From the NCBI GenBank assembly GCA_951406725.2, contig OX597837.1, positions 9,858,001 through 9,922,000 of the forward strand: a stretch of DNA of 64,000 nucleotides, written 5' to 3'. This DNA comes from Octopus vulgaris. Lineage: Eukaryota. The notes below the pieces were generated by a model. It was not told the origin of the DNA, did no database searches, and worked only from the letters and a program-made list of their open reading frames with translations. The position numbers were made by a program, and so were the translations under genes. Shown here piece by piece: positions 1-61,179 of the stretch (the first letter of the stretch is position 1; every line of letters begins with the position of its first letter).

Positions 1-411
1 GATGAAACGGTGCATCGTCTAAGAAATTACAGGGTAAATGTTTTTCAATTTTCTCCTGGTTTACGGAATTGACGTTATTTTGCGGTTAAAGCTTTTGGCT
101 GTTATTTCTAGTGGGTGAATGGCCTATTATGGCCGTTCCTTGATTGTGATGTTGAACTTAAAAATGGTTTATGACTATTTAATTTTTTCCCACTAGGCCG
201 CTGGTGGCAAAAGAATTCTACAAAATTTTTTTTGCCACCCTATATTGATTAATTATGAATTTTCTGGTTAATTCCGTAATGGAATCGGCGGCTTATATTT
301 ATTTGCTGCCGTTAAATTTGGCGCGAGTGCGACGATTTGAAAATTTTAGGTCAGATATTGACGAGGTAGCAACGAGAATGCCTCGTGAAAAATATCTGTT
401 CCGGCTTGGCT

Positions 412-518
412 ATTTCTTACTGATGAATCTAAGGGCCTATGGTAGATTGGCTTGATTTAATTTAATCAGGTTAGTTTTCCATTAAACAGAAGATGAAACG
501 GTGCATCGTCTAAGAAAT
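412..518 (+). ncRNA. Type I hammerhead ribozyme
   Basis: Stem I ATTTCTTA(412-419)/TAAGAAAT(511-518), core CTGATGA 420-426, stem II ATCT/AGAT with 60-nt insert, GAAA 495-498, near-palindromic stem III CGGTGCATCG, GTC cleavage triplet ending 510. Confidence 0.8.
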
Positions 519-901
519 TACAGGGTAAATGTTTTTCAATTTTCTCCTGGTTTACGGAATTGATGTTATTTTGCGGTTAAAGCTTTTGGCTGTTATTTCT
601 AGTGGGTGAATGGCCTATTATGGCCGTTCCTTGATTGTGATGTTGAACTTAAAAATGGTTTATGACTATTTAATTTTTTCCCACTAGGCCGCTGGTGGCA
701 AAAGAATTCTACAAAATTTTTTTGCCACCCTATATTGATTAATTATGAATTTTCTGGTTAATTCCGTAATGGAATCGGCGGCTTATATTTATTTGCTGCC
801 GATAAATTTGGCGCGAGTGCGACGATTTGAAAATTTTAGGTCAGATATTGACGAGGTAGCAACGAGAATGCCTCGTGAAAAATATCTGTTCCGGCTTGGC
901 T

Positions 902-1008
902 ATTTCTTACTGATGAATCTAAGGGCCTATGGTAGATTGGCTTGATTTAATTTAATCAGGTTAGTTTTCCATTAAACAGAAGATGAAACGGTGCATCGTC
1001 TAAGAAAT
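902..1008 (+). ncRNA. Type I hammerhead ribozyme (second unit)
   Basis: Same sequence as 412-518; predicted cleavage after C1000. Confidence 0.8.
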
Positions 1009-1392
1009 TACAGGGTAAATGTTTTTCAATTTTCTCCTGGTTTACGAAATTGACGTTATTTTGCGGTTAAAGCTTTTGGCTGTTATTTCTAGTGGGTGAA
1101 TGGCCTATTATGGCCGTTCCTTGATTGTGATGTTGAACTTAAAAATGGTTTATGACTATTTAATTTTTTCCCACTAGGCCGCTGGTGGCAAAAGAATTCT
1201 ACAAAATTTTTTTTGCCACCCTATATTGATTAATTATGAATTTTCTGGTTAATTCCGTAATGGAATCGGCGGCTTATATTTATTTGCTGCCGATAAATTT
1301 GGCGCGAGTGCGACGATTTGAAAATTTTAGGTCAGATATTGACGAGGTAGCAACGAGAATGCCTCGTGAAAAATATCTGTTCCGGCTTGGCT

Positions 1393-1499
1393 ATTTCTTA
1401 CTGATGAATCTAAGGGCCTATGGTAGATTGGCTTGATTTAATTTAATCAGGTTAGTTTTCCATTAAACAGAAGATGAAACGGTGCATCGTCTAAGAAAT
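1393..1499 (+). ncRNA. Type I hammerhead ribozyme (third unit)
   Basis: Same sequence as 412-518; predicted cleavage after C1491. Confidence 0.8.
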
Positions 1500-1720
1500 T
1501 ACAGGGTAAATGTTTTTCAATTTTCTCCTGGTTTACGGAATTGACGTTATTTTGCGGTTAAAGCTTTTGGCTGTTATTTCTAGTGGGTGAATGGCCTATT
1601 ATGGCCGTTCCTTGATTGTGATGTTGAACTTAAAAATGGTTTATGACTATTTAATTTTTTCCCACTAGGCCGCTGGTGGCAAAAGAATTCTACAAAATTT
1701 TTTTTGCCACCCTATATTGA

Positions 1721-1809
<89 letters not shown>

Positions 1810-6428: not shown

Positions 6429-6610
6429 GAGAAGTACGTGGAATAAATAGGGGCTGTAATAAGGGTGGAGCACTTGCAGAAAACAGCACTGATTGGAACC
6501 GCTCGAATACTCCGGGTGGTGCTCGAAAAATAAGAGCTGTTACTTTAGTTCACTGGTGGTGAACAGTTGACACTGTAGTACATCTTCAACTTTAGAAACT
6601 GTGCAAAAGC
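6429..6610 (+). mobile_element. 3' end of RLE-type (R4/Dong-like) non-LTR retrotransposon
   Basis: Translates EKYVE*IGAVIRVEHLQKTALIGTARILRVVLEK* (stop 6531-6533), the typical QKxxLxGTAxILR C-terminus. Short UTR, then (AAT)n. Confidence 0.7.
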
Positions 6611-6642
6611 AATAATAATAATAATAATAATAATAATGATAA

Positions 6643-50492: not shown

Positions 50493-50856
50493 ATTTGCCC
50501 TTACATCTCCAACACCACCCGCCTCACTAGCACCCACCATCGACCCTATCCCATCATCCACTCCTTCACCTGCACCTCCAGCAATATTATCTATTGCATC
50601 TCTTGCTCTCTCTGCAATTCCTTGTACATCGGACAAACGGGACGCCGCTTGGCTGACCGGTTCGCGGAACACCTTCGTGACATCCACCTTGCGAACGACA
50701 CACCGGTCTCACGCCATTTCCGCTCAACCGGTCACTCCTTGCAACACCTATCTGTGTTCGGTTTGTCCTTACACAGAGGCCATCCGGATTCCCGTTTGCG
50801 CCGTGAACAGGAATTAATCTTCTCTCTTCGCTCTTATACGCCATTTGGTCTCAACT
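50493..50856 (+). pseudogene. Penelope-like element GIY-YIG endonuclease domain (5'-truncated ORF)
   Basis: ICPYISN...SFTCTSSNIIYCISCSLCNSLYIGQTGRRLADRFAEHLRDI...VSRHF...GH...RLRREQELIFSLRSYTPFGLN; frame stays open to 51203. Confidence 0.9.
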
Positions 50857-60218: not shown

Positions 60219-60261
<43 letters not shown>

Positions 60262-60264
60262 TAC

Positions 60265-60310
60265 CACACGCCGACGATAGGCAATACACCTTGAAAGCAT
60301 GGTCCGTGTG
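60265..60310 (+). ncRNA. Type I hammerhead-like motif, CCGACGA core
   Basis: CACACG-CCGACGA-T-AGG-CAATACA-CCT-T-GAAA-GCATGG-TC-CGTGTG; stem III is broken by one change in this copy. Confidence 0.6.
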
Positions 60311-60624
60311 TGGTTTCCGCTTCATCGGGGAATTACCTCCCTTTGCAGGATAAGGACACCGTGACGGTGTCTAGCCTTTCTGGTTACGTCGATGTTCGCC
60401 TGGGGCTAAATGCAACAGTAACACCCCCACCACCCTGCCCTGTCCCTAGCCATATTCAGATGGCTTTAGTCCCTTATGTTATCGAGCAGTTACTGTCTAT
60501 ATCTCTTTTAGAGAATTATTATTGCTTTCGAACAGATTTTCGAAATCAGCAAATGTATTTTGCTTGAAAATCTATATATGAATATCCTGCAGAGTGAGAA
60601 TTCGTCGAGGAAGCGGAAGCCTAC

Positions 60625-60670
60625 CACACGCCGACGATAGGCAATACACCTTGAAACCATTGTCCGTGTG
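60625..60670 (+). ncRNA. Type I hammerhead-like motif, CCGACGA core (second unit)
   Basis: As above with GAAA-CCATTG-TC; the two copies imply an ancestral palindrome CCATGG. Confidence 0.65.
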
Positions 60671-61179
60671 TGGTTTCCGCTTCATCGGGGAATTACCTCC
60701 CTTTGCAGGATAAGGACACCGTGACGGTGTCTAGCCTTTCTGGTGACGTCGATGTTCGCCTGGGGCTAAATGCAACAGTAACACCCCCACCACCCTGCCC
60801 TGTCCCTAGCCATATTCAGATGGCTTTAGTCCCTTATGTTATCGAGCAGTTACTGTCTATATCTCTTTTAGAGAATTATTATTGCTATATATATATTTTT
60901 TTTTCAAAAGAAAAACAGGATGCAAAGGGTTTAGCGGTACATATGTTTCTGGCTTTATTAGACGGTTTATATCAATGCATAATTGATGTAATTTGTATGT
61001 CAATAGCCTTCTTCAGCCGCGCACAATTACTACTCCAAGGACATGTATTACATTATAAGTTTTGGGAAGCAAATCCTCATAGTCGCATATACACACACAA
61101 ACATATATATATATATACACAAATACATATATGTATATTATTATACACACACACACACATATACACAAATACATATACG

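Follow-up and report, generated by a model that had tools for sequence, protein, structure and literature searches.

A dispersed 360-nt hammerhead-bearing repeat in Octopus vulgaris with insertion ends of the PLE type

What kind of element is a 360-nt tandem repeat that carries a hammerhead-like motif in each unit and stands between two AT runs of an octopus contig? The locus lies in a stretch of 64,000 nucleotides of Octopus vulgaris (OX597837.1, positions 9,858,001 to 9,922,000 of the forward strand), which we call the window, and had been read as the reverse-transcribed copy of a structured, viroid-style circular RNA. As that original prediction held, 1.74 tandem units (626/360 nt) are present between (TA)n runs, at 60261..60886 on the plus strand. 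Unit 1, phased as in the prediction, spans 60261..60620, and unit 2 (60621..60886) is 266 nt long, stopping at unit position 266; the two differ by substitutions at 3 positions (60297/60657, 60301/60661, and 60385/60745). The left (TA)n run (60219..60260), the presumed target, is preceded by a very abundant repeat, which we take to be a SINE, and the right (AT)n run (60887..60896) is joined directly to the end of unit 2. Stops occur in all six circular frames of 3 natural units, no frame stays open around the circle of the predicted cut-to-cut monomer (60305..60664, plus strand), and no open reading frame lies in the unit or continues from the arrays, RT and GIY-YIG both being absent from the repeat. 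The claim that it is unrelated to a 491-nt repeat at window positions 1-1728 stands (best BLAST E 0.25). Elsewhere in the window, a short minus-strand match (26/31) to unit positions 255-285, at 6591-6619, is perhaps an old remnant of the family, and a degraded GIY-YIG-like fragment of another Penelope-like element (PLE) lies at 50547-50800, shortly after an (AT)n run.

Each unit displays one type I hammerhead topology, with stems I to III, GAAA, and the cut triplet in register. In motif 1 (60265..60310, plus strand), stem I is formed by 60265-70 and 60305-10, the core at 60271-77 has a C at position 4, stem II (60278-92) has a U-U at its base and is followed by GAAA at 60293-96, and the predicted cut falls at 60304/60305. 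Stem III is damaged in both motifs, at 60297 in motif 1 and, by a break in its palindrome, at 60661 in motif 2 (60625..60670, plus strand; predicted cut 60664/60665), each lesion occurring in 1 of 151 family copies. All motifs quoted in the original prediction are in place, including the stem I arms at 60265 and 60305, the rod arms at 60315/60610 and 60341/60583, and the hairpin arms at 60355/60366, 60372/60404, 60448/60460, and 60534/60566. The hammerhead-like motif was spotted, but its non-canonical core was overlooked: C occupies position 4 in 148 of the 149 young copies that were aligned, and no match to Rfam at gathering thresholds was found anywhere in the window. Stem III of the young family is a perfect 8-nt palindrome, with a predicted duplex of −11.2 kcal/mol in the family form versus −4.7 kcal/mol for the window pair, in which each partner carries its private lesion.

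The core varies among relatives in an orderly manner. Parsed per locus, the window type (67 of 83 loci) yielded C3-G8 with C4 in 62 entries, U3-G8 in 7, and U3-A8 in 3; the cores of a sister subfamily (25 of 27 loci) are all U3-A8, with a G-C base of stem II save in one entry, and those of an older family, family C (8 of 29 loci), are all canonical. Across subfamilies, the 3:8 pair persists as C-G, U-G, or U-A, the four stem III sequences that occur are all palindromes, and the motif of the young family is homologous to the canonical hammerhead core of family C. In family scans, the hammerhead was found on one polarity only. The U4C change is reported to lower activity considerably in vitro, while still permitting viroid infectivity, and occurs as a natural variant, and U3-A8 is described as an active natural covariant (PMC3088659), found in schistosome PLEs as well (PMC4209133). 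Judged from this pattern of sequence variation, the hammerhead motif is under constraint, as a putative ribozyme.

The window copy belongs to a large family. Across the genome assembly (2.8 Gb, 227 contigs), the unit search gave at least 206 matches among 40 of the 1033 candidates scored, and the full-length ones among the matches listed are 97-99% identical and distributed over many contigs. Genome-wide, the exact junction pattern of the “long” end defined below occurs at least 768 times (control 0) and that of the “short” end 630 times (control 1), with 399 exact copies of the ribozyme motif and 2346 copies of an internal unit motif. Beyond subfamilies at 85-96% identity, there are the sister subfamily at ~75% identity (40 of 1927 candidates scored) and the older family C (40 of 2608 candidates scored). 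Older relatives (L171-L200, L159, and L169) combine a canonical hammerhead with the same long 3′ end, and in more distant ones a single hairpin motif and a stretch resembling the tail are retained. A single locus without a fold, the case set against the original prediction, is contradicted by the dispersal of the copies and a folding z of about −7; the repeat is multi-copy and structured. The window locus is an ordinary, damaged, single-armed copy of this young dispersed family. At two loci (L024 and L187), family copies directly adjoin the (AT)n end of an array of the 491-nt family, and both kinds of element therefore stack at shared targets.

The ends of the insertions proved the most informative feature. 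Of the 69 arms in the 40 loci with the highest scores, 65 end at unit positions 215-223 (32 arms) or 260-267 (33 arms), that is, within 17 of 360 positions, the two fixed 3′ ends lying 44 nt apart; for this scoring, an older piece at L017 was dropped and L048 was merged across a spurious match. Twenty-seven of these loci are two-armed and head-to-head, 24 of them with one end of each kind (L050, which has both ends and a third short piece, was left out of this count), and 12 have, as in the window, one arm only. The other set, the first 40 long-end matches on contig C1, was selected for the long end, so that only the partner arm is informative; 2 of the 40 matched too little to be scored, 34 have an inverted partner arm, and 32 of the 34 partners are short-ended. 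Pooled, 56 of 61 two-arm loci consist of one short and one long end. An AT-rich 3′ flank accompanies 62 of 69 arms in the top-scoring loci and 70 of 72 in the C1 set, the latter having been selected on such a junction at one arm. The ~75% sister subfamily has the same two ends, about 43 nt apart. In the window, the long end is at 60886, the putative reverse-transcription start used at this locus, and the short end, at unit position 222, corresponds to 60842 (and 60482), a putative first start that was not used here; the 44-nt tail between them (60843..60886) is the most conserved stretch in the oldest relative. The expectation that copies begin at varying permutations thus holds for the 5′ ends, which are scattered, but not for the 3′ ends, for which random permutation is rejected by the two fixed sites. 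The paired-end, head-to-head arrangement had escaped the original prediction.

This arrangement is the footprint of a PLE. Insertions of PLEs comprise an inverted 5′-truncated copy and a 30-40 bp tail often present at one end only (PMC8557442), and Naiads PLEs prefer (TA)n targets (PMC8557442; PMC3846280). In vitro, two internal reverse-transcription starts follow the cleavage of both strands of an AT-rich target, which explains the PLE insertion pattern (PMC11167929), and PLEs can mobilise other sequences in trans (PMC8557442, PMC11167929, PMC3846280). The PLE-like paired ends therefore suggest that a PLE enzyme pasted the 360-nt repeat in trans, and we regard PLE mobilisation of the family as very probable. 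The 491-nt hammerhead repeat of the window, which continues upstream of position 1 (L251, L236-L250), has a canonical core and a long stem II and is likewise a young dispersed family (40 of 1030 candidates scored). At 16 of its loci, mostly chosen for matches on both strands, one arm ends at unit positions 252-261 and the other at 147-152 in 14 and at 131 and 121 in two; the arms run into (AT)n, and the tail, about 105 nt, far exceeds the 30-40 bp described for PLEs. At L102:1170-2130, ~170 bp of neighbouring repeat DNA are duplicated in the flanks of a sister-subfamily arm, possibly as a long target-site duplication.

Candidate enzymes are encoded in the same genome. A search in which 150 of 6136 candidates were scored gave 50 GIY-YIG loci, including two young local PLE families with intact RT and GIY-YIG frames of 781 and 775 aa; in Pfam searches with the 781-aa frame and a 574-aa truncated copy of the 775-aa family, GIY-YIG scored above the cut-off and RVT_1 just under it. 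Both families have two end sites, about 30-33 nt apart, that run into (AT)n. Their ends have no sequence match to the retrozyme tail, and the 50 loci yielded no helper whose 3′ end matches. A tail match beside the PLE in L163 was rejected as a helper end, being a separate older relative and not part of the PLE. The terminal repeats of both families contain hammerhead-like motifs, with a U3-A8 core in the 781-aa family and, in the 775-aa family, the C4 core and U-U base of stem II of the window family. That young PLEs and the retrozyme have these odd cores in common is a lead and not an assignment of the helper. Regarding their organisation, the 775-aa PLE (L231, G000:C1:27840500-27850400; L163) forms 4271-bp tandems with two ORFs, of 454 and 775 aa, and the 781-aa PLE (L151-L162) has a separate upstream ORF of 479 aa, 28% identical to the upstream ORF of the other family. 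PLEs have been described as single-ORF elements.

The predicted structure of the monomer was compared with dinucleotide shuffles, as the original prediction had proposed. The circular fold of 60305-60664 reached −121.7 kcal/mol (z −7.5) and the linear fold −124.6 kcal/mol (z −7.0; second run −7.1), energies attained by 0 of 100 shuffles in both cases; the z-score was about −4 for the reverse strand and −5.2 for the sister-subfamily monomer. The prediction of a long rod with branched hairpins is thereby upheld, with one helix, TAGCC/GGCTA, occurring in the family consensus fold but absent from the window MFE. By contrast, the assertion that the full rod needs a circle or a multimer fails, given that a linear monomer cut at the ribozyme site makes the same rod, and the “unit junction” at 60620/60621 is merely where the unit had been started; the fold is therefore no argument for a circle. 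When 22 natural monomers were placed on a hand-edited consensus-fold structure of 63 pairs, 98.3% of the cells were paired, against 33-46% in slid controls. Two-sided changes affect 7 of the 63 pairs, including stem I and the 3:8 pair, although their number is not above that in shuffles (119/500) and they reflect about three lineages, on a structure derived from the same alignment. As modelled, the monomer is highly self-paired, as in animal non-LTR retrozymes.

Whether the template was a circle, a cut monomer, or a multimer can be approached through the cut site and the variants. The 5′ ends do not pile up at the predicted cut (unit positions 42-48), where 1 of 69 and 2 of 72 arms begin, which speaks against a linear cut monomer as the main template; at the cut itself, 228 junction-spanning units are without a single indel, one insertion lying a few bases downstream. 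The variant analysis considered substitutions alone and covered 71 of 83 arrays, with 324 pieces of at least 93% identity. Divergence was 0.63% within arms, 0.93% between arms, and 1.22% between arrays. Of 187 cases of variants shared by three or more arrays, 158 were fixed within the array and 29 polymorphic; among private variants, 7 were fixed in every unit (5 of these in both arms), 9 were intermediate, and 78 were single. The 14 pieces of L232 (4.4 kb) are free of substitution differences, and L073 departs from the L232 haplotype by a single change, which 8 of its 8 covering units carry. For a new change to reach both inverted arms, a unit-length template must have been read repeatedly, as a circle would give, and insertion-wide haplotypes, together with the indel-free crossing of the cut, favour a circular template, although uniform donors would also give uniform daughters. 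Other arrays depart from uniformity: L019 has one variant in the second unit of both arms only, L040 and L233 show alternating variants, and L050 is a mosaic, patterns that fit dimer circles, linear multimers, or recombination. Given PLE mobilisation, we consider a circular RNA template likely. Among sequencing runs on record as RNA, none is listed as carrying the 360-nt unit. Four further runs are RNA by our guess only; three contained one 390-nt contig (360+30, a closed assembly loop; depth 8-22), which a tandem DNA array would give equally, and the fourth gave fragments (depth ~400). Three more runs guessed to be RNA and one of uncertain type contributed nothing decisive. Since the cut junction also occurs in genomic tandems, RNA-seq reads across it would be informative only after RNase R treatment.

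We therefore lean towards a dispersed, non-coding 360-nt animal non-LTR retrozyme, pasted into (AT)n by a PLE RT/GIY-YIG enzyme in trans, probably from circular RNA. Arrays would be transcribed, neighbouring hammerheads would form weakly cutting dimers by pairing of the palindromic stem III, and the cut monomers would be ligated to circles. The PLE enzyme would then cut an (AT)n target on both strands, and priming from each nicked end would start at one of the two internal AU-rich sites of the same RNA; both reverse transcriptases would roll round the RNA until stalling, and the two cDNAs would be joined at variable 5′ ends. The narrower proposition, that the insertions are direct genomic records of rolling-circle reverse transcription by a PLE dimer on a ribozyme-made circle (sometimes a dimer circle), with two primed sites and both arms rolling, seems to us evenly poised. 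Several observations sit uneasily with the retrozyme reading: the lower in vitro activity reported for C4 (PMC3088659), which the window subfamily combines with the U-U stem II base; the 9 private variants found in some units only, the second-unit variant of L019, and the mosaic L050; the GIY-YIG loci without a matching 3′ end (50 loci; 150/6136 candidates scored); the 44-nt tail, longer than described for PLEs; and the multicopy, head-to-tail arrangement often seen in non-autonomous PLEs of Chlamys, a group reported without canonical hammerheads (PMC8557442). The covariation, coming from about three lineages and from the alignment that gave the structure, belongs with these. The window locus itself is probably a poor or dead donor, with only the long-end arm kept and stem III lesions in both motifs.

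A PLE could have made the same insertions from a linear multimer that ran through an existing array without being cleaved, in which case the weak hammerhead would be mostly a passenger and circles rare or irrelevant. Hammerhead cleavage is dispensable for PLE insertion in vitro, where the predominant substrate is unprocessed RNA (PMC11167929), which weighs against the retrozyme reading and agrees with a multimer, as do the non-canonical core, the position-matched variants in both arms of L019, and the alternating L040 and L233 and mosaic L050; exact junctions and the lack of a pile-up at the cut fit equally. However, alternating variants fit dimer circles too, and whereas a mutation starts out in a single unit, 7 private variants and the L073 change occupy every covering unit, often in both arms, and 78 singletons have not spread, so that a monomer-to-multimer step is needed; the ribozyme helices and the 3:8 pair are, moreover, maintained across subfamilies. 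We consider the multimer possible but rather doubtful. The notion that the unit is the pseudo-LTR end of an autonomous PLE, the arrays being 5′-truncated copies, draws on an anatomy that is the same as that of PLE insertions, on the homology of Xenopus retrozymes to PLE pLTRs (bioRxiv 10.64898/2026.07.22.740005), and on a degraded RT fragment that abuts a family C piece, the oldest relative, at L199. It is nonetheless very unlikely: arms reach 10.9 head-to-tail units and end inside a unit, and PLE protein matches occur within only 6 of 141 family loci, 3 of the 4 that were read having the PLE set off from the array by AT runs or other DNA. A pLTR ancestry of the unit is possible. Hardly credible, finally, is a satellite-like repeat spread by DNA-level duplication and unequal crossing-over, its hammerhead a chance look-alike. 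The missing Rfam match and a few adjacent units with shared variants in L002, as local duplication gives, would suit it, but the arrays are short and dispersed, their 3′ ends fixed and strand-polar and their 5′ ends variable, and have inverted arms and AT-rich junctions; the fixed paired ends contradict a satellite, and the homology to a canonical hammerhead and the two-sided changes in helices speak against it.

Under the retrozyme reading, the original interpretation is retained in part: the locus is a copy of a reverse-transcribed, hammerhead-bearing, dispersed repeat, with the circle favoured by the haplotypes, but “viroid-style” overstates the case for a genome-encoded retrozyme with a PLE integration footprint. 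The 360-nt family is probably a further animal retrozyme, and its insertions carry useful mechanistic evidence. It bears on which enzyme spreads animal retrozymes and on whether the RNA circle serves as template. PLEs have been named as strong candidates for retrozyme mobilisation (PMC7229834, 2020), as proposed in a review too (PMC7761336), and a 2026 preprint describes PLE co-occurrence and pLTR homology in vertebrates, with mobilisation remaining to be characterised (bioRxiv 10.64898/2026.07.22.740005). In the main texts of PMC7229834 and of that preprint, supplements aside, “tail” does not occur, nor does “inverted” outside a reference; the text of the octopus repeat annotation (PMC13282606) contains neither “ribozyme” nor “retrozyme”; and, subscription papers and supplements aside, our literature search turned up neither a cephalopod retrozyme nor an account of PLE-type paired ends in retrozymes. 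In the octopus genome, it is the insertions that bear the PLE footprint and its two mapped start sites, alongside young intact PLEs, and the family offers a short defined RNA, defined cDNA starts, and candidate enzymes for a direct in vitro test, as well as a natural series of hammerhead core variants. If true, the rolling-circle reading would single out PLEs, on mechanistic grounds, as the mobilisers of animal retrozymes, and the unrelated 491-nt family of the same window would do likewise, with a tail of about 105 nt.

Among known systems, the family works like the animal non-LTR retrozymes and, on testable features, fits with them. These have units of 350-390 bp in mussel and of 330 and 350 bp in axolotl and, like the octopus repeat, are non-coding tandems of 150-450-bp units with GC <50%, one type I hammerhead per unit, a short stem III, and high self-pairing; the U-U base of stem II recalls the axolotl HHR_Amex2 (PMC7229834). 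They differ in that cleavage and circles have been demonstrated for them (PMC7229834), whereas both are predictions for the 360-nt family, and the C4 core is family-wide here, with U3-A8 and U3-G8 in sister subfamilies; the main text describing them makes no mention of head-to-head arms or of fixed paired 3′ ends (PMC7229834). With endonuclease-positive PLEs, the family has in common the inverted 5′-truncated copy, the one-end tail, the two internal starts, the AT-rich or (TA)n targets, and the hammerhead in the repeat (PMC8557442, PMC11167929, PMC3846280); unlike them, its unit has no ORF, and its 44-nt tail is without a match to the PLE ends examined. Non-autonomous PLEs of Chlamys, such as MRC1, resemble it in their multicopy head-to-tail insertions but generally share 3′ sequence with an autonomous family and reportedly have no canonical hammerheads (PMC8557442), whereas the 360-nt family keeps a hammerhead motif and has no 3′ match to a helper among the 50 GIY-YIG loci. 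Hammerhead viroids and satellite RNAs resemble the family in size, strong self-pairing, hammerhead, and dimer-type stem III; by contrast, the 360-nt family gives no hint of RNA-RNA replication or of infectivity and is genome-encoded and spread as hundreds of DNA insertions.
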